Below are positions 23,538 through 62,350 of a stretch of 64,000 bases of DNA, in pieces. The translations under genes and the position numbers were made by a program. The DNA is taken from NCBI GenBank assembly GCA_016934415.1, contig JAFGSW010000039.1:4224-68223 (forward strand), given 5' to 3'. This DNA is from Spirochaetales bacterium. GTDB lineage: Bacteria; Spirochaetota; Spirochaetia; SZUA-6; RPPD01. Within the stretch, counting starts at the first letter, position 1. Each line of letters starts with the position of its first letter. The notes beneath the pieces are model-generated. The model did no database searches. It saw only the letters and a program-made list of their open reading frames with translations, and was not told where the DNA came from.

Positions 23538-24068
23538 TCAGAGTCCCGCGGCTTGGGCTTTGGAAAAAAGCCGGCGCAGGTTCGGCAGCCATTTCCCCGT
23601 CGCGCGTTTGTAATCGAGGTAGCGCCGTCCGAAGGCTTTTTCGAGCAGCTTTTCTTCCGCGCCCGCGACGTAATTCAGGAAAACGCAGATTACGGTGATA
23701 ATCGCCAGCGCGAGCAGGGAACAGGTCAAGAAAAACAGCCCCAGATAGAGCAGGATCTCCGAAAGGTAGAGCGGATGGCGGATGTATTTGAAAAACGACT
23801 TGGTGATGACGACGGGCGGGTCGCGTCGTTCGACGAAAATGATGCGGTGGCTGATCCATGCCATGACGCCGGCCGCCACGATGAGGGCGGCGGCGATCGG
23901 AATGCGAACGGCGGCCGGAATGACGCTCGAGAGAAAAACCGAGTACTTTAAAAAAAACGAATCGATGATCCAGACGGCCAGGAATACGACGATCCCGATG
24001 AGCTGTCCGATATCGGTGAGGGCGTGCTCGCCCGCCAGATCTTTTCTGTGTTCATGCTTCTTTGCCAT
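23538..24068 (-). CDS. isoprenylcysteine carboxyl methyltransferase family protein (paralog 3)
   Basis: FFKYIRHPLYLSE motif. Confidence 0.7.
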   Translation of the reverse strand: MAKKHEHRKDLAGEHALTDIGQLIGIVVFLAVWIIDSFFLKYSVFLSSVIPAAVRIPIAAALIVAAGVMAWISHRIIFVERRDPPVVITKSFFKYIRHPLYLSEILLYLGLFFLTCSLLALAIITVICVFLNYVAGAEEKLLEKAFGRRYLDYKRATGKWLPNLRRLFSKAQAAGL

Positions 24069-24102
24069 TGCGCGCTCCTTCTGTTACAATAATATAAATA
24101 TA

Positions 24103-24123
24103 GCGAAAATGGTTGTCATTAAC
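24103..24123. promoter_or_regulatory. Fur-type box GAAAATGGTTGTCATT upstream of ABC-2 exporter, divergent from ICMT-3
   Basis: Matches the motif; lies in an AT-rich promoter region. Confidence 0.5.
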
Positions 24124-24195
24124 TTTATAGACGTTCGAAGGGGAATAAACGTCTTTTTTTTTTCTGCGGTGAGTATTTGCTGAGGCGGGACATAA

Positions 24196-25167
24196 ATGGA
24201 AAACATTGTCGAAGTGAAGAACCTCGTAAAAAGTTACGGCGATATCCGGGCGCTTGAGGGCATCGATTTTTATGTTCGCCGGGGCGAAATTTTCGGTCTG
24301 CTCGGCCCCAACGGAGCCGGCAAAACCACCACCATCAGCATTCTCACCGGGCTGTCCCGGCCGGGAGGGGGCAGCGTCACGTGCTGCGGGATGGATGCGG
24401 CGGGGCGCATGAAAAAAATCCAGGCGCGGGTCGGTATTGTTCCCGACGAGAGCAATCTGTACGACGAGCTCACCGGGTTCGAAAACCTCTGCTTCTGCGG
24501 CGCCTTGTACGGAGTAAGAAAAAAGGCGCGTGAACGGAAGGCCCGCGAGCTCATAGAGTATCTCGGGATGGGAGAATTCGCCCGCCGCCGTTATAAGTCG
24601 TATTCCAAGGGCATAAAACGCAAGCTTACCGTTGCCGCGGCGCTCGTGCACGAGCCGGAGCTCCTTTTCCTGGACGAGCCCACCACCGGTATCGACGTGG
24701 CAAGCGCGCGCACGATCAGGGAGATGATCAAGGAGTTGAACGCGCGGGGGACGACTGTGTTCCTCACGACGCACTACATCGAGGAGGCGGAACGGCTGTG
24801 CGGGCGGATCGCGTTCATCACGCGGGGCCGCATCGTCCGCGCCGCGACGATCGGCGAATTGCTCGCGGGAGCGGGAAACGAGAGCATCATCGAAATCGCC
24901 CTTGGCGCGCCGCCGGCCGACAGGGAGGCGCTGGCGGATGATATAAAAAAAATCCTGCCCGAAGCCGTCGTTTCCTTTCCCGAAAAGCTTACGGTCCGAC
25001 TCCAGGCGGGAAGAGACGTCGACCTGGGCCGACCCATCGCCTTGTTCGCCGCCCGGGGAGTGCGGGTGCGGGAGGCGAGACTCGTAAAAAAAAGCCTGGA
25101 GGACGTTTTCGTGAAAGTCACCGGCGTCGAGGCGGACGCCATGAAGGGGGAGAAGGAAAAAAAGTGA
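24196..25167 (+). CDS. ABC transporter ATP-binding protein (ABC-2 exporter type)
   Basis: GPNGAGKTT Walker A and LSGGQ-like signature; candidate Fur box upstream. Confidence 0.9.
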   Translation: MENIVEVKNLVKSYGDIRALEGIDFYVRRGEIFGLLGPNGAGKTTTISILTGLSRPGGGSVTCCGMDAAGRMKKIQARVGIVPDESNLYDELTGFENLCFCGALYGVRKKARERKARELIEYLGMGEFARRRYKSYSKGIKRKLTVAAALVHEPELLFLDEPTTGIDVASARTIREMIKELNARGTTVFLTTHYIEEAERLCGRIAFITRGRIVRAATIGELLAGAGNESIIEIALGAPPADREALADDIKKILPEAVVSFPEKLTVRLQAGRDVDLGRPIALFAARGVRVREARLVKKSLEDVFVKVTGVEADAMKGEKEKK

Positions 25168-25898
25168 AAACGGCGATCGCATTTCTGGCCATTCTGAAAA
25201 AAGACATGCGCAACTATTACCTGAAGCCGCCCAATATCAGCTGGGGAATCATTTTCCCGTTCGCCTGGATGCTCATGCTCCTTATCCGGAGCAGAGGCGG
25301 CATGGACGCGGCCGGCGTGTTTCCGGGGATCGTCGCCCTGGCCGTGATCTTCGGCACCACGTCCATGCTCTCCGTCACCATCACCTTCGAGCGGAAGGCC
25401 CGTTCCTTTGACCGCTTGCTCGCCGCGCCATTGAGCATGACCGCGCTCGTGCTGGGGAAAATCTCCGGGGCGGCGCTGTTCGGCGTCTTCAACAGCCTCG
25501 TTCCCGTCCTGGTCTGTACGCTCCTGTTCGGCTCGCCGGTGATCTCTCCCGCAGCCCTCGCCGGGGGCGTGCTCTTGCTGTCCGCGATCTCCACCCTTAT
25601 CGGTCTCTTCGTCGCCGTGTCCGTGAGCGAGGTGTTCGAGGCCCAGACGTTTTCCAATTTCTTCAGGTTCCCCATGATTTTCCTGTGCGGGCTTTTCATC
25701 CCGCTTACCGATCTGCCGATCTGGCTTCGACCGCTTTCCTACGCCCTCCCCGTCACCTACGGCGTGGATTTGCTCAGGCACGGCACCGCCGGCGCGGGGG
25801 AGTTGCCCGTCCTCCTCGACGTCTCCGTGTCGTGCGCTGCGACGGCGCTGCTCTTCGCCGGCAGCGTGCTTATGATCAGGAAGAAGTGGTTTCCGTGA
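25164..25898 (+). CDS. ABC-2 type transporter permease
   Basis: Six TM helices; start overlaps the ATPase gene. Confidence 0.75.
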   Translation: MKTAIAFLAILKKDMRNYYLKPPNISWGIIFPFAWMLMLLIRSRGGMDAAGVFPGIVALAVIFGTTSMLSVTITFERKARSFDRLLAAPLSMTALVLGKISGAALFGVFNSLVPVLVCTLLFGSPVISPAALAGGVLLLSAISTLIGLFVAVSVSEVFEAQTFSNFFRFPMIFLCGLFIPLTDLPIWLRPLSYALPVTYGVDLLRHGTAGAGELPVLLDVSVSCAATALLFAGSVLMIRKKWFP

Positions 25899-25974
25899 CG
25901 GTCCCGGACCAGGGAAATACCGATTTCCTCAATCGGTGTGACAAGCCACGTCGCACCATGATCCCGCCGGTCAA

Positions 25975-26298
25975 TCAGCGTGCGGTCGACTTTCCGGCTA
26001 ATTTTTCTTCCACCGATTGCATCTTTCCCCGCATCGACAACTTTTTATCCCGGCGTTCGTCTATCTTTATCGAAGTCACGACCCTTTTTATTTTTCCGCT
26101 CAATACCGTCTTGTGCATTTTCTCGGCCACCGCCAGCAGCTTTTTCACCGATGGGGCCTCTATCACCGTTCCCATGGGACATACCTCATAGGTGAGACCC
26201 TTTTCCCGCTGCAGCACGCGCACGGCGGCCGCCACATAACTGCTCACGGAAGCGCTTTTTGTCCCGAGGGGGACGACGCTGATTTCCATCACCGGCAT
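25975..26298 (-). CDS. MTH1187/YkoF family protein
   Basis: ISVVPLGT..YEVCPMGT motifs. Confidence 0.7.
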   Translation of the reverse strand: MPVMEISVVPLGTKSASVSSYVAAAVRVLQREKGLTYEVCPMGTVIEAPSVKKLLAVAEKMHKTVLSGKIKRVVTSIKIDERRDKKLSMRGKMQSVEEKLAGKSTAR

Positions 26299-26329
26299 AC
26301 CGCTCTCTCCTTTTTTGTTCGCTTGCTTA

Positions 26330-26548
26330 TTATGACAAATGTCTGTCTATTGTCCCGTCCGGCAACATCTCGTCCGGATGATACTCTCCCCGTTCCTCCT
26401 TTTGATAACGGACGCAACGCCGCCAGTTGCCATGGCAGTAGGCGTCGATCCATTTTCGGTTCAATTTCCCCGCGTCATAGAAATGTTTCATGGGGCAGAC
26501 TGCATACCATTTGCATTCGGGGCCCATGACGATGTGATTCATATACAT
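26330..26548 (-). CDS. small cysteine-rich protein (4 Cys; zf-like small domain)
   Basis: GPECKWYAVCPMK..CHGNWRRC pattern; partial Fur-like half-site upstream. Confidence 0.45.
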   Translation of the reverse strand: MYMNHIVMGPECKWYAVCPMKHFYDAGKLNRKWIDAYCHGNWRRCVRYQKEERGEYHPDEMLPDGTIDRHLS

Positions 26549-26805
26549 CTATCGTATTTGAAAATGTTATTGGAGACAAGGTTGGGACTGATTTTTACAG
26601 AGTTATGCAACGGTAAATTTGACAGCCTACGGCGAGCCCAAACGACAAAAATAGAGTCGTCCTCCGTTGTATAGCCCGCCGTGGTTTTTGCGGTTTCGCC
26701 TCTGGAACATCAGAAAAGAGAAAGAATGGGGAGGGAGGCAACGGCCTTGTCAGGGGATGGAATCCGGCATACAATAAATGAATCAATACAGAAAGGGAAA
26801 ACATC

Positions 26806-27114
26806 ATGCCTGAATTTAGTTACCCCTTTGCCGGAATGAGGAAAGACCGGAAGCTCACCGACTCGGAATTGATCCGCGCCGTCCGCTTCATGATTGCGGC
26901 GGAATATGAAGCCGTCCAGCTGTACATGCAGCTTGCCGAATCCACGGACAACAAACTCGCCGCCGAAGTGCTCAAGGACATCGCCGACGAGGAGCGGGTC
27001 CATGCGGGGGAATTCCTGCGCCTTCTGAAGGAGCTCGCCCCGGATGAGGAGAAATTCTACGCCGAGGGGGCGAAAGAGGTGGAAGAAGAGATTATGAAGA
27101 TGAAAAAAGGTTGA
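26806..27114 (+). CDS. ferritin-like (rubrerythrin/EncFtn-like) small protein
   Basis: AEYEAVQLY..ADEERVHAGEF, i.e. the ExxH pair of a half-ferritin. Confidence 0.6.
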   Translation: MPEFSYPFAGMRKDRKLTDSELIRAVRFMIAAEYEAVQLYMQLAESTDNKLAAEVLKDIADEERVHAGEFLRLLKELAPDEEKFYAEGAKEVEEEIMKMKKG

Positions 27115-27326
27115 AGCGGCGCCCGTGCAGATCCGGCGGAAAACGCCGCTGTCTTTCAAAAACGATTTCGTTTCCATGACCTGCTCCCCGCATCCGGCAC
27201 ACTGGCGGTCGGGACCGTGGGAGCGCGGGGAGGCGGCGACGCGCCCATGACCGTGCGGGGAAAGCAGAAGCCTGTAAAACCGTCGTTAGCCTTCGAGTAG
27301 TTTTATCCTTGCATCTGAATACATTG

Positions 27327-27941
27327 TTACGGTTTTTTTGCGTTTTTTTCTTCATTTCCCCCCGTACCGCGCCCTGCATGCGGATGGATTTCCTTCATCC
27401 CGGACTTTTTCAGAATGATATTGGCGATAGGGAGGGAGAATGCGTAGGCGAGTCTCCGGCCTTTTTTTTCTTCCGGCGTCAACAGCCCTTCCTGAAAGGA
27501 AACGACGGTATTGCAGCAGAGATTCCCGAACAGAACCGACTGGGTAAACGCCCTGATTTGCAGCGCCTTAAATGCACCATAACATCTTTCAAGTGTTTTG
27601 CAAGAAACCGCAGACGGGTTGCCTCTCGTTTCGGCCATATGCTGGGCGAATAAAACGCCTGCCGATTCGGACCGGTCGACGCGCCGTCCGACGTTTTCCA
27701 CAATGGCGGCAATCTCCTCTTGCGCTATCCCCTCCTCCAGGCCGCGGCGGGCGTGAAGATAGGAACAATAGGCGCATTGGTTCACCTGGGAAACGGCCAG
27801 CATGAGCATTGTCCTGAAGCGGGGGGAAATTGTCTCCCCCCGGGGGATTTTTCTCAACGTCGTCATTCGGCCGAAGGTTGTGAAAAAGAGAAAGAGGAAT
27901 TCCCCAAACGAAGCGAAGATGCGCAGCCGGCCCTGCTTCAT
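27327..27941 (-). CDS. carboxymuconolactone decarboxylase / AhpD-like protein
   Basis: NQCAYCSYLH motif; start is uncertain. Confidence 0.55.
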   Translation of the reverse strand: MKQGRLRIFASFGEFLFLFFTTFGRMTTLRKIPRGETISPRFRTMLMLAVSQVNQCAYCSYLHARRGLEEGIAQEEIAAIVENVGRRVDRSESAGVLFAQHMAETRGNPSAVSCKTLERCYGAFKALQIRAFTQSVLFGNLCCNTVVSFQEGLLTPEEKKGRRLAYAFSLPIANIILKKSGMKEIHPHAGRGTGGNEEKNAKKP

Positions 27942-28088
27942 GACCGCAGTGTACCACACATTTTCCGGACGGTACATCGGACGGCGCGCCGCGCCGGGCG
28001 CCAAAGTCTGGGCCGGAAACGGCAATAATTCCTCGTTTCAATTCAAACGACGGCGCGATCGGATCCGATCGAAACCGGCTTTTTTCTA

Positions 28089-28138
28089 TTGACAGAGTGT
28101 GTAAAGTGAGGTATATTGAAAATGGTTATCATTTTCAA
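28089..28138 (+). promoter_or_regulatory. fur promoter (ttgaca-N17-tatatt) overlapped by palindromic box TTGAAAATGGTTATCATTTTCAA
   Basis: 9-5-9 perfect inverted repeat overlapping the -10 element. Confidence 0.7.
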
Positions 28139-28150
28139 TAAGGAGTTCGT

Positions 28151-28612
28151 ATGCCGCATGGGCACGGACACAGGTGGGGACAGAAATTATCGGGCTGCGG
28201 GTTCAGGTTGACCGTCGGCCGCGAGGCCATTATAGACGTCCTTTCGCGCTCGGACAAGCACCTGAGCGCCGAGGATATCTTCCTTGAGCTGCACGCCGAC
28301 CACCCGGGCATTGGTTTGACGACCATCTACCGGACCCTCGAGCTCCTGGTGCAGACGGGAATCGTGGCCAAGTTCGAATTCGGCCACGGCCGGGCCAAAT
28401 ACGAGCTCACCGAGGAATACGGCAAGAAAAAGCACCACCATCACTTGTTTTGCAAAAGCTGCCAGACGATCATCGATTATTCGGATTTCATGGAAGATGA
28501 AATCACCTATATAAAGAAAACGGAAAAAGGGCTGGCGAAAAAATACGATTTTCAGATTGACGGTCACATCATAAATTTTTACGGGCTGTGCCGCGCCTGT
28601 CGGGCGAAATGA
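28151..28612 (+). CDS. fur: Fur family transcriptional regulator
   Basis: HHHHLFCKSC and GLCRAC motifs; its own promoter carries a 23-bp palindromic box. Confidence 0.85.
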   Translation: MPHGHGHRWGQKLSGCGFRLTVGREAIIDVLSRSDKHLSAEDIFLELHADHPGIGLTTIYRTLELLVQTGIVAKFEFGHGRAKYELTEEYGKKKHHHHLFCKSCQTIIDYSDFMEDEITYIKKTEKGLAKKYDFQIDGHIINFYGLCRACRAK

Positions 28613-28638
28613 AAGGGGATTTTTTTTAAGCAGAAAAT

Positions 28639-28654
28639 GAAAATGGTTATCAAT
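28639..28654 (+). promoter_or_regulatory. Fur-type box GAAAATGGTTATCAAT upstream of the DUF5320 cluster
   Basis: Matches the motif. Confidence 0.55.
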
Positions 28655-28708
28655 AGCAAAAAAAGAGCGCCCGTGAGCGGGTGAAGTTTTTTATAGAGGA
28701 GGCATGAT

Positions 28709-42320: not shown

Positions 42321-42734
42321 CGAATAAAGCCCGGAAGAGGCGGCGGCGGATTCCTCCGGGAAAAAACCGGAGGCTGACGCCGCTCGCGCCGGGGGAATAA
42401 GGCATTTCATCTTCAGCTCGGTCGGCGCCGCCGATATCTTTCTCGCCTTCCAATGATTTGGAGAAGCCTCGGCTTTTATTTTCACCGGACTTTCTAAAAC
42501 CATTTATCATCGTGAACCGAAACCAATAAGATCTTCCCGCAGCCGCGTCTCGGCTTCGCTCGACGAACGCCTTTTCTTCTTTTCAGCGCGGGCGAGACGC
42601 CCGCCCTACCTAGCCGTGGTTCCCTCTCCCCCGGGAAGGGCACCCGCGCTTTACACTCCTCCCGCGAGATGCTACCATCCGCTAAACCGGTCACGGAACG
42701 GCGGGTTCCACTTCGATCGAATAAGGTTCGGATA

Positions 42735-44000
42735 ATGGCGCAAAACAACGGAAACCTCGTGCGGCGGAATATCTTTTTCCAATCCCTCGATTCGGGCATC
42801 TTCATGTCAGGGATCGTGTTTTTCAACCAGATGACCATCATGATCGTGTTCATCCAGCAGCTCTACGATTCCGCGCTCATCGTAAGTCTCGTGCCGGCGC
42901 TTTTCATGATCGGCTATAACATCCCGGGCCTGTTCACGACCGGATTCGCGGAGCGGTCGGCCTTCCGCAAGAAATTCATCGCCCTGGGCGGCTTCATCCA
43001 GCGGCTGTTCGTGCTCTGCATGGTCCTGTCGGTCTTCCTCCTCCCGTTCGTCGGGCCCCGCGCCACCGCCCTCATCGTCCTGTTCTTCTACCTCGGCTTC
43101 TCCTTCATGGGCGGCGTGTACAATCCCGCCTGGATCGACTTCTGCGCCAAGACCATTCCCGTCAATTACCGGGCGCGGACCAATGCCGCCCGCTCTCTGA
43201 TCGGCGGGCTGGGGGGCATTGCGGCGCCATTGCTCATCGATTACCTTCTCAATAATTTTTCCTTTCCCGGCAATTACCAGCTCACGATATTTTGCGGTTT
43301 CCTCCTTCTCTTTCTCTCCTTCTCGGCCTTTCTCATGATCAGGGAAACGGAGCCCTCGCCGCCGGTGGCCCATAAGAGTTTCGGCAAATTCCTGCGGTCG
43401 TTGGGAGAGGTCCTGAAAAAGGACCGCAACTTCGTGCGTTTTCTCCTTACGCAGATTCTCTTGAGCGTCTCCGAGTGCGGGGCGGCGTTTTACGCCTTTT
43501 TCGCGACGAAATACCTGTTCGTGCGCACCGCTTGGGTCGTGTGGTACACGCTTTGGTACAATGTCGGTTTCGGGCTCTCCGGGATCGCGCTCGGATTCAT
43601 CGGGGACAAGCTGGGGAACCTGAACGTCCTGCGGATCGGGGCGTTCGGCTGCTTCCTGGGCCTCCTGCTCGTGATCCTGTTCCCGAATCCGGCTACCATC
43701 AGCATCGTTTTTATCATTGTCGGGATCAATTACAATGCCCGTCTCAACAGCTTCCAGGTGTTCATCACCGAATTCGGGGACGACCAAAGCAGAATCCGCT
43801 ATTCGGCGCTCGCCACCTCCATCGGCGCTTCCGCCTTCGGCCTCATGCCCCTTGTGGGGGGCATCCTGCTCGACGTTTTCCACGTCGATTTTGTGGCGCT
43901 GTTTGTCGTCGGAGCGGTCTGCGCCCTGCTCGCGTTCGTCTCCTACCTGTTCTTCGTGAAGGATCCGCGGTCGTACAAGGCGCCGGTGCACAACGCCTGA
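42735..44000 (+). CDS. MFS transporter
   Basis: 12 TM helices. Confidence 0.7.
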   Translation: MAQNNGNLVRRNIFFQSLDSGIFMSGIVFFNQMTIMIVFIQQLYDSALIVSLVPALFMIGYNIPGLFTTGFAERSAFRKKFIALGGFIQRLFVLCMVLSVFLLPFVGPRATALIVLFFYLGFSFMGGVYNPAWIDFCAKTIPVNYRARTNAARSLIGGLGGIAAPLLIDYLLNNFSFPGNYQLTIFCGFLLLFLSFSAFLMIRETEPSPPVAHKSFGKFLRSLGEVLKKDRNFVRFLLTQILLSVSECGAAFYAFFATKYLFVRTAWVVWYTLWYNVGFGLSGIALGFIGDKLGNLNVLRIGAFGCFLGLLLVILFPNPATISIVFIIVGINYNARLNSFQVFITEFGDDQSRIRYSALATSIGASAFGLMPLVGGILLDVFHVDFVALFVVGAVCALLAFVSYLFFVKDPRSYKAPVHNA

Positions 44001-44383
44001 GGAAGAGAACCACCCTTCGGCTCGCGGAGAAAACGACTCCAACATAGACGCGGTTCGGTCCGCCGCCGGAAACTGCGTTGCGAGGTGCGCTCAGGGCAGG
44101 CTCCTGACACGGCTGGGTAGTGCGGGCGTCCCGCCCGCACTGAAGAGTGAAAAACCACGGATCAAACGCGGATGTACGCGGGTAATGAAGGAAGAGGAAA
44201 AGACAAAGACTTGCGAACACCATTTCGATTACAATGATGTCGATGGAATAACGTACTGCCGATAGATCATCTCCGCAACTTTTTGTATATTCTCAACTAC
44301 ATACTTTCGTTACTCAGACGCCGGCGGGACATTGCCGGTGAACGGCTCTATGAAATACTTGTAGAGACGACGGATGTGAGGAT

Positions 44384-45784: not shown

Positions 45785-45807
45785 CTACGAAGAAGAATAA
45801 GTCGATA

Positions 45808-45945
45808 AGGAAACCAGGAAACCAGGAAAAAAGGCAAGCAGGAAGGGAGAAAGGGAGAGAGAGGAAGAAAAAAATGAAAATAAAAATGCCTTTTTCTGTT
45901 TTTCTTTGTCTTTTTTCTTTTCCTGGTTTCCTGGCTTCCTTATTG
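45808..45945. repeat. intergenic inverted-repeat element, GGAAACCAGG family (leuC-leuD spacer)
   Basis: ggaaaccaggaaaccagg .. AT-rich centre .. cctggtttcctggcttcc. Confidence 0.6.
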
Positions 45946-45980
45946 TTTTTTCTTCTATAAAGTGAAGCGGAGGAATAACG

Positions 45981-46736: not shown

Positions 46737-46804
46737 AAACGGTTTGGGAAAATACCGTGTTGGCTTAAGTATGTTTGAAAAAAAACGAGAAACGGGAGGC
46801 AATC

Positions 46805-48481
46805 ATGGCGGAACAGCTGAACCGGCGCAGCCGGGAAATGACGGAAGGCTTGTCCAGGACCGCAAACCGCGCCATGCTCCGCGCGGTCGGGTTCAAAGAC
46901 AAGGATTTCACCAAGCCGATCATCGGCCTGGCCAGCGCGGGGAGCGAAGTCTCGCCCTGCAATTACCATCTCAACGAGCTGGCCGAGTGGGCCAAGGAGC
47001 CGCTTCGCAAGCGGGGCGGCGTGCCGCTCCAGTTCAACACCTTCGTGGTGACGGACGGTGAGGCGATGGGCCACGAGGGGATGAAGTGCTCGCTTCCGAG
47101 CCGCGACACGATCGCGGACGTGATCGAGCTGGTGGCGCGCGGCCACAAAATGGACGCCCTCTTCGGCCTGGGCGGCTGCGATAAGACCATCCCCGGCACG
47201 GTGATGGCCATGGCCCGCCTCAACCTGCCCTCGATTTTCCTCTACGGCGGCACGATCCTGCCCGGGAAATACCGGGGCCGGGACGTGGACATCGTCAGCG
47301 CCTTCGAGGCCGTCGGCGCCGCCGGACGCGGGATCATGAGCGAGGAGGAGCGGCACGGCATCGAGTGCGCCGCCTGCCCGGGCCCCGGCGCCTGCGGCGG
47401 GATGTACACCGCCAACACCATGGCTTCCGCGATGGTCGCCATCGGCATGGCGCCGCCGGGAAACGCCTCCCTCCCCGCGGTGGACAGGGCAAAGCGCGCC
47501 GAAATGGGGCGGGCCGCCGGTTTTCTCACCGGGCTCATCATAAAGAACATCAGTCCGCGGGACATCATGACCCGCCGGGCCTTCGAGAACGCGATCCGGA
47601 CGGTGATGGCGCTCGGCGGCTCCACCAATGCCGTCCTCCACCTCCTCGCCCTGGCCAGGGAGGCGGAGGCGCCGCTCACGGTGGACGATTTCAATCCCTT
47701 CGCCGAAACCACGCCCATCCTCTGCGACATGAAACCGGCCGGGCGCTACGTCATGAACGACCTGCACCGGGTCGGCGGGGTGGAGGCGGTGATGAAGATG
47801 CTCCTCGACCGGGGACTCCTCCACGGCGACTGCCTGACGGTCACGGGCCGGACGCTCGCGGAGAACCTGGCCGGCGTGCGCGTGTCCCTGGAGGGGCAGG
47901 ACGTCATCCATCCGTTCGAGCGTCCGGTGAGGGCGGCGGGACCCATCTTCATCCTCAGGGGCAACCTGGCGGAGGAGGGCGCCGTCTTGAAGACCTGCGG
48001 CATTGAGAAAGCGGAGCATTCAGGCCCGGCCCGGGTGTTCGAGCGGGAGGAGGAGGCGCTGGCGGCGATCCTGGACGGGAAGATCCGCAAGGGCGACACC
48101 ATCGTTATCCGCTACGAGGGGCCCAAGGGCGGGCCGGGGATGCGCGAGATGCTCGCCCCCACCGCGGCGATAGCGGGCGCGGGGCTCCTCAATGACGTCG
48201 CCCTGATCACCGACGGCCGCTTCTCCGGAGGAAGCCACGGCATTCTCGTGGGGCACATCGCGCCCGAGGCGCAGGTCGGAGGGCTCATCGCCTTCCTCAA
48301 GGACGGCGATATGATCACCATCAGCGCCTCCCGCAAGCTCCTCCAGGCCGACGTGAGCGACGAGGAAATCGCCCGGCGCAAGGCCGGCTGGAAGCCCCGG
48401 GAGATCGCCTACACCCACGGCGCGCTCTACAAGTACGCGAAATTGGTGTCCTCGGCGAGCCGCGGCGCGGTCACCAGTTGA
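46805..48481 (+). CDS. ilvD: dihydroxy-acid dehydratase
   Basis: CDKTIPG and SGGSHG motifs. Confidence 0.95.
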
Positions 48482-49837: not shown

Positions 49838-50036
49838 AGGAAGAGAAAATAACTACGGATGGGACGCGGATAGGACGCGGATAAAGAGAATAGAGAAAGA
49901 GCAAAGAGCAAAGAGAATAAATTGTTCTATATTTCTTTTTCTTTCTTGCCTTTATTCTTCATCCGCGTCCTCACGCTGGAAGCTGCGCTGCGCGATCCCG
50001 CGTTCATCCGTAGTTCCATATCTTCCTCATCCGCGC
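49838..50036. repeat. intergenic inverted-repeat element, ACGGAT family (htrA-uvrB spacer)
   Basis: ctacggatgggacgcggataggacgcggat .. atcccgcgttcatccgtag. Confidence 0.6.
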
Positions 50037-52047: not shown

Positions 52048-52085
52048 GATCAACTCCCCGGGGAATTTATCAGGAGACTATGAAG

Positions 52086-52197
52086 GACAGGAAACCAGGA
52101 AAAGAGGGGGAAAAAAAGAAAGAGAGAGAAGGGGAAACAGATTTTCTTTTACTTTTTATCTCTTTCTCTTTTCCGGTTTCCTTTCCTCCTGGCTTCC
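52086..52197. repeat. intergenic inverted-repeat element, GGAAACCAGG family (downstream of uvrB)
   Basis: ggaaaccaggaaaagag .. ctcttttccggtttcc. Confidence 0.55.
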
Positions 52198-52240
52198 TCA
52201 TAAAATCTTTCCAATTGAGTGGAATGGACGAAGATTATAG

Positions 52241-52660
52241 ATGAGAGGATTTATGACTACAAAGAAAAGCCGTATGTCTATAGGGTGCCTTGCCGCTTTG
52301 GCGATCGCCGTATTCCTGGCTTCAAGCTGCGGGGGGAACGGGAAGGACACGACCATCGAGCTTCCGGGCGAGCGGGTCATGCGGCTCGGGTACGGGTGGG
52401 GGGTGGTGCTCCTCAATTACGTCCGCATCCGGGCCACGCCGGCCGCGGACGGGATCGAGGTCACGGCCCTGGCCAGGTACGCCGTGGTGCGGGTGATCGA
52501 CAAGGGCCGGCGCGAAACGACCAAGACCGGCGCCGATTTCTGGTACCAGGTGGAAGCGGGCTCGAACCGGGGCTGGCTCTTCGGCTCGTACCTGAAGGTG
52601 TTCCACGACCGGGACGAGGCGGTGCAGGCGGCCGCCGAGCTCAAGGCTGAGAAGCGGTGA
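52241..52660 (+). CDS. lipoprotein with bacterial SH3-like domain
   Basis: Lipobox LASSC; YAVVRV and FWYQV motifs. Confidence 0.5.
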   Translation: MRGFMTTKKSRMSIGCLAALAIAVFLASSCGGNGKDTTIELPGERVMRLGYGWGVVLLNYVRIRATPAADGIEVTALARYAVVRVIDKGRRETTKTGADFWYQVEAGSNRGWLFGSYLKVFHDRDEAVQAAAELKAEKR

Positions 52661-54222
52661 CCGGCCAACTTTCCGTCCTTTTCAGCTGGCTGGCTCCGCC
52701 CGTCCTCGGCGCGGTCATCGGTTTCGTCACCAACGACATCGCCGTCCGCATGCTCTTCCGGCCCTTCCGGGAGAAGCGCATCTTCGGCATCCGCGTCCCG
52801 TTCACGCCCGGCATCATTCCCAAGCAGCGGCGGAAGCTGGCTTCGAGCATCGGGCGCATGGTCTCCGACGAGCTTCTCACCGAGGACGCGGTGCGCGCCC
52901 AGATCGGCACCCCGAAGGTCTGGGAGGCGATCCGGGAGAACGTGGCGGGGATCACGAGCTCGATCCTCGACACGCGCCTCGACACGCTCCGCGAACAGCG
53001 CCTGCCGCTCTTCCAGGCCACCCTCCCGGAGATTGTCAACGGCTTCTTAAAGTCGTTTCTCCAGAGCCCGCTCTTCCTCACGGCCCTGAAGAGCGTCCTG
53101 GAGACTTTCCTCGATTCGGTGGCGGGCCGGCCCGTGCGGGAGCTCATCGAGGAGCTCAAGCTCCGTCCCTTCCTGGAGGAGAAGCTCCGGTCGATCGTCG
53201 AGGACGACCGGCTCAAGGAGAAACTCAAGACAAGCGTCGCCGCCTGGGCGCGCCGCAAGGCGGGCGGGAAGGAATCGCTTTCCGGAATCCTGCCCGAGGG
53301 CCTCACGGGCACGCTCACCGGGCTCTTCCGCTCGCTCTATCCTTTCCTCCTGTCGAGCCTCAGGGCCTGGCTCGCCGCGCCCGAGGTGCGGCATAACCTG
53401 GAGACGCGGGGCAAGCTTCTGCTGGACGACATCCTCTCCAAGCTCAACATCTTCCAGCGCTTCTTCCTGTCGGTCGGGCAGTACGACCGCACCTTGAGCG
53501 ACCGGATGCCCGGCATCGTGGACGATTTCATCAACCGGGTGAGCGGGGCGATCGAGTCCGAAAAGGACCGCGAGGAGATCGTGCAGGCCTTCGCGCGCGC
53601 CCTGGACGACTGGGCCGCCAAGGGGCTGGGGGACATCGTCGGGAAGGACGAGAAGGACCTTGATGGGAAAATCTCCGGCCTCGTGGACGGCCTGTTTTCC
53701 TTTCTGCGCCGGGAGGAGCTCGGCACAAAGCTGGCGGACGCCGCCGGCGCCTACCTCGCCTCGCGCGAGGAGGAGAGCCTCGAGTCCCTGGCCGGCTCGC
53801 TCCTCGGCCTGAAGACGTCCCAGGTGGCCGAGTACATTGTCGGCCGCTTCACCGACGAGCGGTTCGCCGCCGGAGCCGCGGAGCGCGTCACCGCCTTCGC
53901 CGTCGACTTCTTCAAGACCCGGGGCGCGCTCACCGTGGGAGAGCTCCTGGGCGCGGACCCTGTGAACAAGGCCGAGTTCGACAAGCGCGCCGCCGCCGCC
54001 CTGAACGGCGTCCTCGGCCAAAAGCTCCCCGAGGCCCTCAAGAGCCTCGACCTCCGAGGCCTCGTGGAGAACAAGATCAACGGTCTCGACATCGAGGAGG
54101 TCGAGGGCCTCCTCCTCATGGTCATCGCCCGCCAGCTCAAGTGGATCAACGTCTTCGGCGCGATCCTGGGCGGGCTCATCGGCCTCCTCCAGGTCCTCCT
54201 CCGCGCGCTGGGCGTGTGGTAG
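52657..54222 (+). CDS. DUF445 family membrane protein
   Basis: VTNDIAVRMLFRP..PFTPGIIPK motifs. Confidence 0.6.
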   Translation: MTGQLSVLFSWLAPPVLGAVIGFVTNDIAVRMLFRPFREKRIFGIRVPFTPGIIPKQRRKLASSIGRMVSDELLTEDAVRAQIGTPKVWEAIRENVAGITSSILDTRLDTLREQRLPLFQATLPEIVNGFLKSFLQSPLFLTALKSVLETFLDSVAGRPVRELIEELKLRPFLEEKLRSIVEDDRLKEKLKTSVAAWARRKAGGKESLSGILPEGLTGTLTGLFRSLYPFLLSSLRAWLAAPEVRHNLETRGKLLLDDILSKLNIFQRFFLSVGQYDRTLSDRMPGIVDDFINRVSGAIESEKDREEIVQAFARALDDWAAKGLGDIVGKDEKDLDGKISGLVDGLFSFLRREELGTKLADAAGAYLASREEESLESLAGSLLGLKTSQVAEYIVGRFTDERFAAGAAERVTAFAVDFFKTRGALTVGELLGADPVNKAEFDKRAAAALNGVLGQKLPEALKSLDLRGLVENKINGLDIEEVEGLLLMVIARQLKWINVFGAILGGLIGLLQVLLRALGVW

Positions 54223-54270
54223 GAGATGGGGGAAGATGAGGGAGATGGGGAGGGGAAGAAGACATGAATG
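54222..54270. repeat. GGGGAAGATGAGG-family purine-rich arm, left flank of the AT-rich DUF4332 island
   Basis: Its reverse-complement partner lies at 55014-55106. Confidence 0.5.
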
Positions 54271-54277
54271 ACGTGAA

Positions 54278-54964
54278 TTAAACATTTCCAATGATTCTGG
54301 GATAGATTTTAGCCCAATATATGTCGGATGTTATTTCTTTCTCAGTTGGTATCGCTCTCTTCAATGTCCGTTGTTCTATAATGCGTTCCATTTCCTTTCT
54401 CAATTTATCAGGGTCCCTTTTACCCAATTCAAATAAAGACATAATGCCGACGTGCATGAATAGATCGGCCTTTATTTCCTTAATTCCGGGTTTTCTGAAT
54501 AAATCAGCCAAAGCGAGAATTTTATGAAAGGTGTTCTTCGGAATTTCAGTTCTCCGTTGCAGCGAAAGCGATTTTTCTTTTGTTGAACAAGAGAGCAAGA
54601 GCTCTCCGTTTGTTTTAATGCCGTTTACTTTCAGTTTCTCGATATGCTTTTTATCAACACCGATAATTATTTTCAATTGATACGGTTTATATTTGTGAAA
54701 TTGCAATAATTGAAATAATAGCCTTACATAAGTCATATCAACCTTCGTTTTTTTTATAAGGTGATGTAAGTCATTATCATTCTGCATTACCAAGAATAAA
54801 TCATTTGAGTCTTTGATACTATTCAATGGAAGTACCGTACAAATATTCTTCAAATTTTCAATTGAATTCCAATATGATCGGGTTAATGTTTTCTCTCCCA
54901 ATACGCTGAAAAGATCGTTTATCTTTATATTGTTTAGTTCTTTATTGTTCACATCGGTCTCCAC
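54278..54964 (-). CDS. DUF4332-like (HhH) protein on an AT-rich island
   Basis: ~32% GC versus the ~64% flanks; GTG start; C-terminal LADLFRKPGIKEIKADL..DPDKLRKEM pattern. Confidence 0.5.
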   Translation of the reverse strand: METDVNNKELNNIKINDLFSVLGEKTLTRSYWNSIENLKNICTVLPLNSIKDSNDLFLVMQNDNDLHHLIKKTKVDMTYVRLLFQLLQFHKYKPYQLKIIIGVDKKHIEKLKVNGIKTNGELLLSCSTKEKSLSLQRRTEIPKNTFHKILALADLFRKPGIKEIKADLFMHVGIMSLFELGKRDPDKLRKEMERIIEQRTLKRAIPTEKEITSDIYWAKIYPRIIGNV

Positions 54965-55013
54965 TTATGGGAATTGCTTTCACCGCTTATACAAATATCC
55001 TGACCTCTCTGAT

Positions 55014-55106
55014 TTTTTCCCTCCTCTCCATCTTCCCCATCTTCTTAATCTTCCCCATCCGTAGTTCCCTCACCTCCTCATTTTCTTCATCCGCAGTTTC
55101 TCTCAC
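55014..55106. repeat. pyrimidine-rich arm (ccatcttccccatcttcttaatcttccccatccgtagtt), right flank of the DUF4332 island
   Basis: Inverted relative to 54222-54270; a similar string occurs at 59921-59950. Confidence 0.5.
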
Positions 55107-55115
55107 CCGGGCCCG

Positions 55116-56057
55116 CTATTTCTTCATGCCGCCGAGGAGCTCCATGAGCTCGCCGCGGGTGCGGATCTCCATTTTTTGGAAAATGTGGTGGACGTGGCTC
55201 TTCACGGTCGGGATGGAGATGAAGAGCCGGGAGCCGATTTCGCGGTAGCTCCGGCGCCCGATGAGATACTCCGCCACCTCGATTTCGCGTTCGGTGAGGC
55301 CGCGTTGCCGGAAGAGGGTCCGGTCGACCGGCGCCTCCGCGACGGGATGCGCCTGGATGAGCACGAGGAGCAGAAAGCGGAATGTGAGCACGCTCGTGAC
55401 GCACAGCAGATAATAGATGACGGGCCAATTGACGCCGAAGAGTGCGGACAGGATATTCATCCCCCAGACGCCTTCCTCGATCGCGATGAGCGGGGCGAAG
55501 GCGAAAAAAACGACGACGGTGACGATGAGGGTGCTTTTGAGATTGCGGTTGACGATTCTTTTCAGGTAGCGGACCGTGATATAGGCCAGGACCACCAGCT
55601 GCACGCCCTTGAGAAGGCCGAGCCCCAGCTCGAGCCGCCGCCACTCTTCCCCGTCGACGGCGACGGCGAAGAGGAAGAAGAAAAGGATCGAGAACGAGAT
55701 AAAGAAATGAGCGATCCTTTTTTTCATGGTGAAGCGGACCTGCATGAGCCCGTAGAAGGACCGCTGCAGAAGGAAGAGCACGCAGGATTTCACGGCGTAG
55801 AGCGCGATGAGCCAGACGATTTCCGGCGTCGGACCCAGGGTGACGCCGGCGATCGTCATATAGACGACCACGGCGTAGAGCAGGACCATGAGGAAATTGC
55901 CGAGACTGACCAGGGCGAGGTGGCGATAGGTTGAGTCCCCGGTCCGGCGGAACAGGATGAACGCCATGAGCACCGAGCTCAGGCTCAACACGAAACTGGC
56001 GATGCTCACGAAATACGTGACGTGGATCACGGTCCCTCCGGTCGAGGGCGGCGGCAC
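55116..56057 (-). CDS. LuxR-family regulator with N-terminal multi-TM sensor domain
   Basis: C-terminal LTEREIEVAEYL..PTVKSHVHHIF helix-turn-helix; start uncertain. Confidence 0.65.
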   Translation of the reverse strand: MPPPSTGGTVIHVTYFVSIASFVLSLSSVLMAFILFRRTGDSTYRHLALVSLGNFLMVLLYAVVVYMTIAGVTLGPTPEIVWLIALYAVKSCVLFLLQRSFYGLMQVRFTMKKRIAHFFISFSILFFFLFAVAVDGEEWRRLELGLGLLKGVQLVVLAYITVRYLKRIVNRNLKSTLIVTVVVFFAFAPLIAIEEGVWGMNILSALFGVNWPVIYYLLCVTSVLTFRFLLLVLIQAHPVAEAPVDRTLFRQRGLTEREIEVAEYLIGRRSYREIGSRLFISIPTVKSHVHHIFQKMEIRTRGELMELLGGMKK

Positions 56058-56261
56058 GCCGCGAAGCTGCGGAAAATCGAGGAGAAAGCGGAGTGGGACG
56101 CTTCATGGCCTCAAGACCCGGTACGCCTCATTTTATCCCGAACGGGGGAGCGTGTCCAGATTTCCGGATGGGGGAAGATGAGGAATTCCGGGAGGAAAAG
56201 AGTGTTTCTCTTCCGATAACCGAAACTCATGCTTTCAGCGCAATTTATCCGACCCGATCCG

Positions 56262-56342
56262 CTGATTTCCCCTTTCCGCTTCCATCTATAATGCATGACC
56301 GTGTATACAAATGCACTCTATGGCGGGCGGGACGCCCGCCAT
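56262..56342. repeat. ~80-bp conserved intergenic repeat ending in GC hairpin ATGGCGGGCGGGACGCCCGCCAT (copy A)
   Basis: Roughly 85% identical to 59836-59916. Confidence 0.6.
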
Positions 56343-58102: not shown

Positions 58103-58366
58103 GAGACCTCCCTTCGGCAAAAAAGAAATAAAAGAAAGAAGCACCGGCCGCCCGACATCAGGCGCGTTCCCGGGAGGAAGCATATCCCGCGCCGACGGTC
58201 TCATGGCCCCATCTTTTTTCGCGTAAAAGTATAACACCGGCGCGGATGTTCAACAAGCGGGCGCCCGGGGGGGGTAGATGAGGGAAGATCAGGCGGTTTT
58301 GCCGAGCTTGCTCGGCAAAACTACCGGATAGGGAAGATGAGGAGGATGGGGGGTGCCGGGAAGACA

Positions 58367-59809
58367 TCAAAGCCTTTCGAGCGTCCTCTTGATATTGATC
58401 GAGCCGATACCTTCTTGGTCGCAGATCCGAAACCATTCTTCCTCGGTTATATGCTTGTGCGTCATGGAATGCACCAGATCGAATATTTCCAATTTGCGGC
58501 CCTCGCGCGTCAGCCGGGGGAACCGCTCCGGAACTACGTGCAGGTCCCATCCGCTTCGCGACAGCACCGCCGCGACGACCGTACCGAGGATTTCCGTGAC
58601 GTCCTCGTCGCACAACTCGGCTCCCACGGGGCATTCTTCCATCAGCGTCCAAACATAAGCATGGAGCTCCCGGCAGGTAATGTCCAGTCTCGTCAGGCCG
58701 CCGGTGAAATGTTTCGCCCTCTTTTCGAAAATGAACCGATAGGCTTTTTCCCCCGCTTCCTCCCATTTCAAGGGGATGATATTTTGAACCGAGCGGTGTT
58801 TGAATACCGCCGCGCAATCGTCTTCCAGCGCCGTCGTCATTTTTTCCAGGGGAACGGACGCCTCCCGCGCCGCGCCGCTTCCCGCCTCACCCTTCGCTTC
58901 CATCCTTGCTATTCTTTTCCCGAGCTCCGGATGAGACGAATACCGGCTTCCCTTGGGCTCCGGCATTCTTTCCGCAAGGCCGCACTCGCGGCCGTTTTGC
59001 AGGAAGCGACAGAAGCCTTCCAGGAACGGTGGAACGTATCCCCTCGCGAGCGCCGGAGAATAATACTTGTTCCAGTACGCCGCAAAGCGCTTCTGCACGC
59101 CGACGACGCTCCGCAAGGCGTCCGCCGCGCGCCGGCTTCCCGCATAACGGCAGGCGATCTCGTCGGCCACCGTTTCCTGCCGCCGCGAAACGGCGCTCGT
59201 CACAAGGCGGAACAATTTCGCGAAAAGGATGAAAATACCGTCGATGAGCTTCGTATTCCGCGTCAGCTGTTCTATAATATTTGAAAGCGAATTGTGAAGG
59301 GTGTAGATCGTCGGGCCCAGGGAGGTGTCCTTCCTCGAAAAGTGGCCGAGCTCGTGCGCGATGACCGCTCCCAGCTCCGGTCCCGGAAGCATAAGGATAA
59401 GCGGGACGCCGATTCCGAGAATGGTCTTTCCCCCGAAACCGGACATCGTGTCCCGTTTGCCGATCCACGCGTCCGGCTCCGGGAGGAGATAGATTTCCCG
59501 GGGCGCCTGCTGGCCGAGGTCTTCCGCGATGGCGGCCACCGCGGCCGATATCTCCCGATACCGATCTCCCCGGATCAGAATCCCGGGCGGGATGAACTTT
59601 TCTTTGCGGGGAAACATGGCGACAAGGATGGAGAACGCTCCGATGTAGCATATCCCGATGACGTAGAAATTAATGCGACCCAGTTCCAGCACCATGTAGA
59701 CAGGCAGCGCCATGAGTGCGACGACGACAAACAGCGTGAACGCGTAGAAAAAAACAAAAAGAAAGATCACCAGAAGCGCCCTGAGGGCGAATCCGAGCTT
59801 GTGCTTCAC
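58367..59809 (-). CDS. M48 family zinc metallopeptidase, membrane-anchored
   Basis: AHELGHF HExxH motif; GTG start. Confidence 0.75.
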   Translation of the reverse strand: MKHKLGFALRALLVIFLFVFFYAFTLFVVVALMALPVYMVLELGRINFYVIGICYIGAFSILVAMFPRKEKFIPPGILIRGDRYREISAAVAAIAEDLGQQAPREIYLLPEPDAWIGKRDTMSGFGGKTILGIGVPLILMLPGPELGAVIAHELGHFSRKDTSLGPTIYTLHNSLSNIIEQLTRNTKLIDGIFILFAKLFRLVTSAVSRRQETVADEIACRYAGSRRAADALRSVVGVQKRFAAYWNKYYSPALARGYVPPFLEGFCRFLQNGRECGLAERMPEPKGSRYSSHPELGKRIARMEAKGEAGSGAAREASVPLEKMTTALEDDCAAVFKHRSVQNIIPLKWEEAGEKAYRFIFEKRAKHFTGGLTRLDITCRELHAYVWTLMEECPVGAELCDEDVTEILGTVVAAVLSRSGWDLHVVPERFPRLTREGRKLEIFDLVHSMTHKHITEEEWFRICDQEGIGSINIKRTLERL

Positions 59810-59835
59810 TTAAATTTCCGCCTTTCCCCGACCTG

Positions 59836-59916
59836 CTGATTTTCTCTTTCCGCTTCTATCCATAATGCTTCATCTTGTATACGAATGCACTCTATGGCGG
59901 GCGGGATGCCCGCCAT
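59836..59916. repeat. ~80-bp conserved intergenic repeat ending in GC hairpin (copy B)
   Basis: Same orientation and a similar position upstream of a minus-strand gene. Confidence 0.6.
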
Positions 59917-59971
59917 TTCTCTATCTTCTTAATCTTCCCTATCCGTAGTTTTCAAAGCCCTCCCCGGAACG

Positions 59972-61427: not shown

Positions 61428-62153
61428 TCATTTAAAAAGCGAGAATGATGCATGGTATTCGTCAAGCTCCCAATTGTGGGAGTTATAGTGGACATATTCC
61501 CTGATTTTATCCAATTCCCGGTCGTTCCGGATTATTCGGTCGTAGAATCGGGGTTGCCAAATCGGTGATCCGATGCGCACCGTGACGGCGGATTTGAAGC
61601 CGGCTACAAACGACGAAAAGGATTTCGGGGAACGATTCGCGATAGGGCACGATTTTTTGGAATCCGATTGTAGAGACGCACGGCCGTGCGTCTCTACGTT
61701 TTCCGGCTTATAAACGTGATCCCGGTTCACGCGAACATTCCGCGGGTCTTCGCGGCCATGTGTCCGTACAATTGTATCCCTGATAATCACGATCCCGTGC
61801 ACGTGATTGGGCATGACGCAATACGCGTCACAATCCAATTCCGCGCGGATCCCGAACGATTTCAACCATTCCGACTCGACGATTTCACCCGCCGGCGACA
61901 ATTGCATTCGCCCCCGGACGACGCCGCCCAGGAGACATTCCATGTTCCGGGTGCACAGGGTGATGAAATAATACCCGGGAGCGGAATAATCCCGGTTTTT
62001 CAACCGCGTCGAATCGATTCTGTATTTCGTTACATTCAAATTCCGGCTCACGGCATTCCCGCCTTTCCACGCATAAGGAAACCGCGGTTTCAGCCCGGTG
62101 AATTCAAATACACGTTCGCATCGGGGACAGGGTTTTGGGGAGTTAATTGGCAA
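61428..62153 (-). CDS. REP-associated tyrosine transposase (RAYT, IS200-like HuH); a REP palindrome lies inside the ORF
   Basis: YYFITLCT, MPNHVHGIVI (HuH), and FKSAVT..WQPRFYDRIIRN..YVHYNSHNWELD motifs. Confidence 0.7.
   Translation of the reverse strand: MPINSPKPCPRCERVFEFTGLKPRFPYAWKGGNAVSRNLNVTKYRIDSTRLKNRDYSAPGYYFITLCTRNMECLLGGVVRGRMQLSPAGEIVESEWLKSFGIRAELDCDAYCVMPNHVHGIVIIRDTIVRTHGREDPRNVRVNRDHVYKPENVETHGRASLQSDSKKSCPIANRSPKSFSSFVAGFKSAVTVRIGSPIWQPRFYDRIIRNDRELDKIREYVHYNSHNWELDEYHASFSLFK
61670..61697. repeat. REP palindrome GTAGAGACGCACGGCCGTGCGTCTCTAC (inside the RAYT ORF)
   Basis: 28-bp perfect palindrome. Confidence 0.7.
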
Positions 62154-62183: not shown

Positions 62184-62211
62184 GTAGAGACGCACGGCCG
62201 TGCGTCTCTAC
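62184..62211. repeat. REP palindrome GTAGAGACGCACGGCCGTGCGTCTCTAC
   Basis: Identical 28-mer with a conserved ggaatYSRaTYgtagag 5' flank. Confidence 0.7.
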
Positions 62212-62263
62212 GATACCGTCCAATACATTACTCCGGATTCGCACGTATATTTCGCAAAAAACC

Positions 62264-62282
62264 ACGGCCGTGCGTCTCTACG
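62264..62282. repeat. REP half-copy CACGGCCGTGCGTCTCTAC inside a ~78-bp tandem repeat unit
   Basis: Unit (REP ..ccgtccaata..tccgRa..atttcgcRaaaa) repeated 2.2 times across 62181-62340. Confidence 0.55.
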
Positions 62283-62350
62283 TTTCCCGTCCAATAAATA
62301 GAATCCGAACCGACACGAACATTTCGCGAAAATCCACGGGCGCCTGCGGC

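Follow-up and report, generated by a model that had tools for sequence, protein, structure and literature searches.

A low-GC DUF4332 gene, most likely from the integron cassette pool, between host hairpin arms of a Spirochaetales genome

The 64-kb window analysed in this study (the whole stretch of 64,000 nucleotides from a Spirochaetales bacterium, contig JAFGSW010000039.1 of assembly GCA_016934415.1) contains an AT-rich gene for an HhH-type DUF4332 protein (54278..54952, minus strand; an open reading frame [ORF] of 224 aa with 33% GC, assigned to Pfam PF14229), which lies between a purine-rich and a pyrimidine-rich arm in inverted orientation. This arrangement raises the question of whether the arms brought the gene to its present place or were there before it. 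The first-pass annotation of this DNA had allowed for both, i.e. an insertion into a pre-existing element or an element carrying a passenger gene. We consider it reasonably probable that a gene from the integron cassette pool landed between convergent host genes, inside a hairpin element that the host already possessed.

The segment 54278–54964 has a GC content of 33.6%, compared with a mean of 60.9% for the window and, for the two flanking genes, 66.8% (DUF445) and 60.1% (LuxR-type). When the sequence was scanned with sliding windows of 687 bp (mean GC 0.608, sd 0.053), the minimum (0.333) fell exactly on this segment, and the next-lowest value outside it was 0.488. The contrast noticed at first reading (about 32% against roughly 64% in the flanks) was thus confirmed by measurement. 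The GC content at third codon positions (GC3) is equally deviant (0.36 versus 0.72–0.93, around 0.85, across 18 host genes). Because a protein rich in Lys, Asn and Ile could account for part of the low GC, a codon test was run, in which the expected GC was calculated from the gene's own amino acids and the synonymous codon choice of the host. The expected value was 51.8% and the observed one 33.2%, a deficit of 18.6 points; this statistic varies over the host genes with an sd of 2.0 points, so that the deficit amounts to approximately 9 sd. The composition is therefore truly foreign, also after correction for amino acids. A tblastn search of the relatives and of the rest of the window detected no DUF4332 copy or remnant. 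That the gene is foreign to the host, as had been proposed, is strongly supported by its composition, the codon test and its absence from relatives.

A word-indexed search for relatives of the protein returned just four, at 45–50% identity, and a second, profile-based search of the same collection found named members from Oceanotoga (Thermotogota). An exhaustive profile search retrieved 1522 representatives at E values up to 0.001, with approximately 22 full-length two-domain relatives (~220 aa). It had been suggested that the homologues might prove to be plasmid- or phage-borne. Neither a phage match (tblastn) nor a viral-contig match was obtained, and the only two plasmid matches were weak (30% identity over half of the protein).

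The most informative homologue (P0126, from the closest clade) is encoded in locus L028 between direct-repeat elements of 141 nt and 139 nt (284–424 and 1144–1282). These were compared with the published definitions of attC architecture (PMC4889954), the criterion being an R'' box RYYYAAC and an R' box GTTRRRY enclosing an imperfect palindrome of ~57–141 nt, directly 3' of an ORF. The downstream element starts with GTCTAAC (RYYYAAC) and the upstream one with AACTAAC, while GTTAGAC (GTTRRRY) closes both. The downstream element is predicted to fold into an R box and an L box, the latter with bulged bases, together with an unpaired spacer and a variable tip; for the upstream one the prediction pairs the L box and the variable tip and leaves the R box unpaired. 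Both were classified as canonical attC-type sites of ~140 nt each. The repeat GTTAGACGCCATGCCCCC / GGGGGCACGGCGTCTAAC, which brackets the L028 gene, corresponds to the 5' end of the cassette paired with the sequence running into R''.

Homologous but degenerate cassette ends were found in three further loci (L004, L006 and L022). The flanks of the L004 gene (5882–5979 and 6679–6698) are homologous to the L028 cassette ends (0 of 2000 shuffles reached the score), L022 keeps the 3' end of the cassette (681–710), and a covariance model trained on the pair of L028 sites gave a weak match just 3' of the L006 gene (L006:2561–2730; 15.7 bits, E 0.04). Moreover, the homologue is the most tightly bracketed gene of its locus in L004 (score 14) and L006 (score 13), versus 5–12 for 62 other genes outside the window locus. 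The cassette-end flanks of L004 were also seen to be the only stretches of more than 55% GC in 12.6 kb. The codon-corrected GC deficit of the homologues was 7.8 points in L004 (4 sd) and 5.1 points in L025, and their composition looks native in Oceanotoga and L026. Judging from these sequences, the closest homologues of the DUF4332 gene are cassettes of the integron type that circulate among low-GC genomes, which would explain their compactness, their AT-richness relative to the hosts and their scatter over unrelated genomes. By comparison with these homologues, the window gene most likely came from the same pool. In the literature we found DUF4332 in passing mention only, and a link to cassettes was not found there.

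What, then, are the arms? The purine-rich arm (54223..54262, plus strand) begins right after the stop codon of the DUF445 gene (54220–54222) and belongs to the GGGGAAGATGAGG / ACGGATGAAGAAGATG arm family. The pyrimidine-rich arm (55003..55106, plus strand) is, on the minus strand, a purine-rich tail following the stop codon of the LuxR-type gene (55116–55118), and it ends 10 nt short of that stop. It contains two tandem units of ~32 nt (55033–55066 and 55065–55098), the end of each being the terminal motif ATCCG(T/C)AGTT (55057–55066 and 55089–55098). The two arms, whose inverted arrangement was thereby borne out, share a 23-nt inverted-repeat core (left copy 54229..54251, partner 55034–55056; 87% complementary, 782 nt apart). 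In a 906-nt minus-strand transcript both copies pair in the minimum-energy and centroid folds, with a z of only −2.05 (20 shuffles). The foreign piece of ~725 bp between the arms is the ORF with minimal flanks, as host-type repeat resumes at ~54262 and ~54998. Allowing up to 2 mismatches, the window has 10 occurrences of the motif GGGGAAGATGAGG versus 2.5 expected, and other copies of this subfamily (56167, 58271–58360 and 59917–59950) lie in successive intergenic regions around host genes.

The segment 55003–55030 of the pyrimidine-rich arm aligns with a host module of 90 nt, which is present twice (56253–56342 and 59827–59916, 87% identical), upstream of the LuxR-type gene and of an M48 peptidase gene. 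Within the module lie a TATAAT-like box and the palindrome ATGGCGGGC-N5-GCCCGCCAT; the resemblance to 55003–55030 is at its pyrimidine end, and it has no match in Rfam.

Compact hairpins of the same general kind were identified at 1185–1392, 12165–12375, 45785–45965, 49845–50035 and 52065–52205, all of them very long folds (z −4.8 to −7.9). The first-pass annotation had stated that similar arms enclose about 80 bp of spacer elsewhere. This holds only at the level of the class: the hairpins at 1185–1392 and 12165–12375 have AT-rich loops of ~70–100 nt, and three others are almost loopless (45785–45965, 49868–49975 and 52065–52205). The hairpins share an outer-end motif, which reads AAC-(C/T)AC-GGAT at one end and ATCC-GT(G/A)-GTT at the opposite one. 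In no fewer than eight host genes this terminal motif was found on the coding strand, 2–30 nt past the stop codon. Several elements, including those ending at 1194, 12363 and 48498, terminate with a T-run. In one case the frame of a KsgA-like rRNA adenine dimethylase (11131–12210) enters the purine-rich arm of hairpin 12165–12375 by ~30 nt, and the arm at 12180–12210 appears to provide its last codons and stop.

Genome and metagenome scans for close relatives returned only distant loci or truncated contigs, the best usable relatives having DUF445 proteins 67–70% identical to that of the window; their orthologous intergenic sites hold homologous hairpins. The htrA–uvrB spacer of L015 (4220–4342) carries the same ACTACGGATG...GCGGATAAAGAG arm as position 49851 of the window. 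The uvrB–SH3 spacer, orthologous to the site of hairpin 52065–52205, contains a hairpin with 56-nt arms in L015, and in L016 no more than a short, terminator-like hairpin with a T-run behind it. In both L015 and L016 the stop codon of the DUF445 gene is followed by AA(C/T)TACGGATGAAGAAGATG (19 of 20 positions identical between the two), which is close to the arm units AACTACGGATGGGGAAGAT and AACTGCGGATGAAGAAAAT of the window. Neither relative has the DUF4332 gene at this spot. An arm at the orthologous DUF445 stop of relatives lacking the gene, together with the same motif after many host stops, marks the arms as host features; and as the two flanking genes are convergent, their purine-rich tails are inverted copies of each other simply by geometry. 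These sequence comparisons show the arms as a long-lived host feature of gene ends, predating the DUF4332 gene.

The region between the two flanking genes differs among the relatives. L016–L018 keep uvrB–SH3–DUF445 followed by a convergent LuxR-type gene (in L016 the orthologue is full-length and 40% identical), and the interval between DUF445 and LuxR contains another ORF of 121 aa with moderately low GC, which has no Pfam match and is not DUF4332. In L016 this ORF is located at 8855–9220 (minus strand), and the region around it (L016:8600–9400) has 43–48% GC compared with ~62% outside. L015 carries an ORF of 592 aa at the same spot. The interval seems to gather foreign genes in more than one lineage.

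Host genes, too, are enclosed by such arms. Bracketing scores (170-nt flanks, gapped alignment) were 57 for a gene of the MFS family (42669–44000), 40 for the M48 peptidase gene (58367–59809), 32 for the DUF4332 gene and 25 for the LuxR-type gene. An earlier impression that the AT-rich DUF4332 gene is the only one to be bracketed was true for 120-nt ungapped flanks, and it failed with the 170-nt gapped ones. The arms of the MFS gene (42572–42618 and 44108–44153) and of the M48 gene (58317–58347 and 59923–59952) form stronger inverted repeats than those of DUF4332, the former including GC palindromes tagged with GTAG/CTAC (GCGGGCG-N3-CGCCCGC), the classic form of repetitive extragenic palindromic (REP) sequences. 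The ilvD gene (46775–48481), which has host composition (GC3 0.90), is situated between a purine-rich end (46606), placed 10 nt past the stop of the aconitase small-subunit gene, and a pyrimidine-rich end (48489), placed 7 nt past its own stop and before the htrA promoter region. In the aconitase–htrA spacer of L016 (2937–3237) a purine-rich end and pyrimidine-rich ends are found ~190–220 nt apart with no gene between them; the comparison with the window amounts to a gene-sized gain or loss within a hairpin element. Since ilvD and the M48 gene are enclosed in the same way, gene-sized contents are not limited to foreign DNA. A search for decayed DUF4332 copies in the loops of other hairpins found none.

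The events at this locus may be pictured as follows. The host genome, of high GC and assembled from a metagenome, belongs to a lineage in which a purine-rich arm starting with AAC-YAC-GGAT comes directly behind the stop codon of most genes, on their coding strand. Such an arm usually pairs with a pyrimidine-rich partner, giving a long, terminator- or REP-like hairpin. The tails of the DUF445 gene (plus strand) and the LuxR-type gene (minus strand) would jointly form one shared hairpin element. The foreign DNA of ~725 bp, consisting of one ORF, a leader of ~45 nt with a ribosome-binding site and a trailer of ~6–15 nt, presumably entered the AT-rich interior of this hairpin, where no gene was disrupted and which may have been prone to breakage. 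The joining reaction may have been catalysed by an integrase at a secondary site and followed by loss of attC, or it may have been illegitimate recombination. The arms would have taken no enzymatic part in the transfer, the hairpin interior being at most permissive or fragile. As no consensus sigma-70 promoter was found in the leader (54953–54997), we propose that transcription of the DUF4332 gene is by read-through from its LuxR-type neighbour, or possibly starts at a weak promoter in the leader. A candidate promoter-like motif common to the DUF4332 and LuxR-type genes (CCGNNTATACAAAT, upstream of both) was rejected, its count being at chance level.

Of the two possibilities offered by the first-pass annotation, insertion into a pre-existing element fits the data better, given that L015 and L016 carry the arm motif after the DUF445 stop and lack the gene. 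It had also been hoped that the locus could reveal how the whole repeat class is mobilised. The arms are present at orthologous sites in relatives, and nothing links their spread to the gene; this is an ordinary gene acquisition, and the locus provides no clue to the movement of the repeats.

Several results weigh against the landing of a cassette-pool gene in a ready-made hairpin. No attC site was detected in the window by a scan combining pattern and pairing, and the L028 covariance model found nothing near the gene. By eye, the window flanks seemed to contain degenerate cassette ends (GTGAAAGCAATTCCC resembling GTTAGAAGCCATGCCC, and CATGTCTTCT resembling CACGGCTTCT), but this candidate was rejected: the similarity to the cassette ends of L028, L004 and L006 was not significant (shuffle p 0.08–0.5) in a test for which the L004–L028 comparison given above served as positive control. 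The cassette origin is therefore an argument from the homologues and not from the window copy itself. No integrase or transposase was recognised among the 36 window ORFs scanned against Pfam. The two arms are only modestly complementary: their local alignment score of 32 (20.9 ± 3.6 in composition-preserving shuffles) was reached by 19 of 2000 shuffles (p ~0.01), and they are no closer to each other than to further members of the family. The right arm has a better partner in 59917–59950 (score 56), and the left arm scores as well with 56167–56201 (35) and 58271 (32) as with the right one. Comparison with relatives yielded the arm after the DUF445 stop in the absence of the gene, but not an intact empty hairpin. 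L016 was considered as a candidate for the latter and discarded, as the complementarity between its arm and the downstream pyrimidine tract is at chance level (reached by 182 of 1000 shuffles). The relatives are too distant for the timing of the insertion or the exact empty site to be reconstructed.

A more specific route, capture by an integrase, also deserves attention, although we regard it as unlikely. An integron integrase encoded elsewhere in the genome would have acted on a secondary site in the hairpin, placing a circular DUF4332 cassette there, and the attC site would later have been deleted or eroded. The closest homologues are indeed bona fide or decayed cassettes, and the ~725-bp foreign segment matches the non-attC part of the L028 cassette (419–1143, 725 nt). 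Furthermore, integration at secondary sites and clusters of attC sites without an integrase are documented, and integrons have been reported in Spirochaetes (PMC4889954). However, the window has neither attC nor a remnant of it, the similarity of its flanks to cassette ends is not significant, no integrase was found among the ORFs tested, and the loss of attC alone, with the ORF left intact, requires an extra event.

It is doubtful, and in our view quite improbable, that the interiors of the AAC...GTT-ended hairpins are recurrent, structure-targeted landing sites for gene-sized DNA, with DUF4332, ilvD and the M48 gene as examples. If this were true, and driven by hairpin or cruciform extrusion or by attC-like recognition by a recombinase, it would amount to chromosome-wide, integron-like gene capture on terminator hairpins.

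The other option of the first-pass annotation, a composite mobile element, now appears very improbable. The arms would be the terminal inverted repeats of a non-autonomous transposon, of the MITE (a miniature transposable element with inverted repeats) or mobile-insertion-cassette type, with DUF4332 as passenger and mobilisation in trans, possibly by the product of a gene at 61428–62153 resembling those of REP-associated tyrosine transposases (RAYT). The 23-nt, 87% inverted repeat around the gene, the repetition of the arm family in the window, the RAYT-like gene with its GTAG palindromes 6.4 kb away, and the inverted repeats that likewise bracket homologues in two other genomes are all compatible with such an element. 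On the other hand, relatives that lack the gene have the arms at the orthologous site, arms follow host stops in general, no target-site duplication of at least 6 nt was found at the boundaries, there is no second copy, and host genes are enclosed in the same manner. The palindrome of the RAYT-like gene is a different sequence, and the inverted repeats of the homologues, which differ in sequence from the arms, are explained by attC-type cassette ends.

The RAYT-like ORF (61428–62153, minus strand, 241 aa) matches NCBIfam NF047646 in two stretches, below the cut-off (E 1.5e-12, 47.6 bits versus 80), and the HUH motif PNHVHGIV is the site of a weak match to Pfam Y1_Tnp. The perfect palindrome GTAGAGACGCACGGCCGTGCGTCTCTAC (28 nt) occurs in frame inside this ORF (61670–61697) and again just upstream of it (62184–62211), with a partial copy at 62263–62290. 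The ORF and the palindromes form a REPtron-like unit, and the palindrome differs from the arm family. We consider the RAYT-like gene with its own GTAG palindromes a more interesting lead than the DUF4332 gene.

Least credible of all is a resident gene, old in the lineage and kept AT-rich by constraints on the protein or mRNA (e.g. a long-range stem of the arms enclosing the ORF), because, although several genomes (L004 and L025) have family members that exceed their hosts in AT content and the arms pair in the predicted transcript fold, the synonymous deficit of ~9 sd goes far beyond that seen in other hosts, the composition is native-looking in Oceanotoga and L026, the three relative lineages that share the synteny lack the gene, and the fold is only weakly supported by its z value.

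As in integron cassettes, including those integrated at secondary sites, and clusters of attC sites lacking an integron integrase (CALIN), there is a compact single ORF of foreign composition, whose leader is short and for which no own promoter is evident, and its closest homologues lie between canonical (L028) or decayed (L004, L006, L022) attC sites; unlike them, the window copy has no attC, neither neighbouring cassettes nor an integrase were found, and it is placed between housekeeping-type host genes. The sharp drop in GC and codon usage within one ORF, the absence from relatives and the lack of gene disruption are reminiscent of a single-gene, ORFan-like islet of horizontal gene transfer, but the boundaries fall inside a host repeat element and no link to a tRNA, integrase, phage or plasmid was found.

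The arms themselves share several traits with REP sequences, bacterial interspersed mosaic elements (BIMEs) and MITEs, being abundant, intergenic, mostly placed just downstream of genes and able to form large stem-loops; like REPs and BIMEs, they carry CTAC/GTAG or CCAC/GTGG at the outer ends. REP dimers have spacers of 20–100 bp, and DNA inserted between the partners of a dimer has been described (PMC3733652). However, REP-type units are short (20–40 nt), self-complementary, GTAG-tagged and associated with a RAYT transposase, whereas the single arms are purine or pyrimidine tracts of 40–100 nt which are not self-complementary and are built of short reiterated motifs (CACGGAT, GGAAACCAGG, GAAGATG). 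True GTAG palindromes were found elsewhere in the window (42589–42612, 44118–44140, 61670–61697 and 62184–62211). In contrast to REPs, BIMEs and MITEs, the arms are conserved at orthologous sites in relatives and no target-site duplications were seen. Of the traits of MITEs and mobile insertion cassettes, terminal inverted repeats are present; a target-site duplication, further copies and an arm-free empty site are lacking. Intrinsic (bidirectional) terminators provide another parallel, as the hairpins follow the stop codon directly and several have a T-run, but the stems are far longer (40–60 bp) with loops of up to 100 nt, and the arms at this locus lack a T-run and are 780 nt apart. A scan for consensus terminators found none at these arms, and T-runs terminate compact hairpins of the class at other positions.

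As to the gene itself, the likely start is the GTG codon at 54950–54952, which gives 224 aa and has GGAG 6 nt upstream. An alternative in-frame GTG (54962–54964) would yield 228 aa, and it was there that the first-pass annotation had set the gene edge. The downstream GTG is favoured by the spacing of GGAG and by NCBI, which annotates an identical 224-aa protein in a 'Spirochaetales bacterium' metagenome-assembled genome. The 5' leader (54953..54997, minus strand) includes this Shine–Dalgarno sequence (54959–54962). The earlier naming of the product as DUF4332-like was well founded, as residues 104–216 match PF14229 with an E value of 3.5e-20 (72.8 bits versus a cut-off of 23.2); the N-terminal half matches no Pfam family. 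Residues invariant in the family are kept in the window copy, and 224 sense codons are maintained in AT-rich DNA rich in stop codons; on this sequence evidence, the gene is intact and probably functional. AlphaFold2 (AF2) modelling gave an all-helical two-domain protein, with a predicted local distance difference test score (pLDDT) of 76 overall and 84–95 in the C-terminal half. A Foldseek search of the PDB returned only local matches to HhH modules (domain 5 of PolQ/Hel308, NusA AR, the N-terminus of RadA, and Dpo4), all with E > 0.1. That the protein may bind nucleic acid is a reasonable guess.

The left neighbour is a host gene for a DUF445 membrane protein (52657..54222, plus strand; identified by Pfam, orthologues 58–70% identical), part of a uvrB–SH3–DUF445 synteny conserved in relatives; its stop is only 55 nt from that of the DUF4332 gene. 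The right neighbour, a host gene for a membrane regulator of the LuxR/GerE type (55116..56057, minus strand; Pfam GerE), is located directly upstream of the DUF4332 gene on the same strand, with 160 nt between them. The gene had been described as lying on the strand opposite to its neighbours, which is correct for the convergent DUF445 gene but not for the LuxR-type gene. A search of the window with Rfam at gathering thresholds gave no match, nor was any obtained in 53900–55400 at E values up to 1, and no tRNA was found in the window. Further away, a stretch of lower GC (52–58%, 15318–28655) contains seven copies of an AT-rich palindromic box, AATGAAAACCATTTTCAAT (e.g. 19680–19710 and 28111–28141); these resemble the operators of a repressor of the metal-responsive (Fur) type or a similar one.

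Taken alone, the locus holds a routine horizontally acquired gene, of unassigned function and of a known kind (a cassette-derived single gene). It nevertheless ties an uncharacterised two-domain subfamily of DUF4332 to the integron cassette pool, and would show that a cassette-type gene can survive intact without attC in a high-GC spirochaete chromosome. The family of host hairpins is a more interesting object than the gene, and the locus helps to define it as an unusual one, whose arms start from stop codons, persist at orthologous sites and tolerate gene-sized contents.

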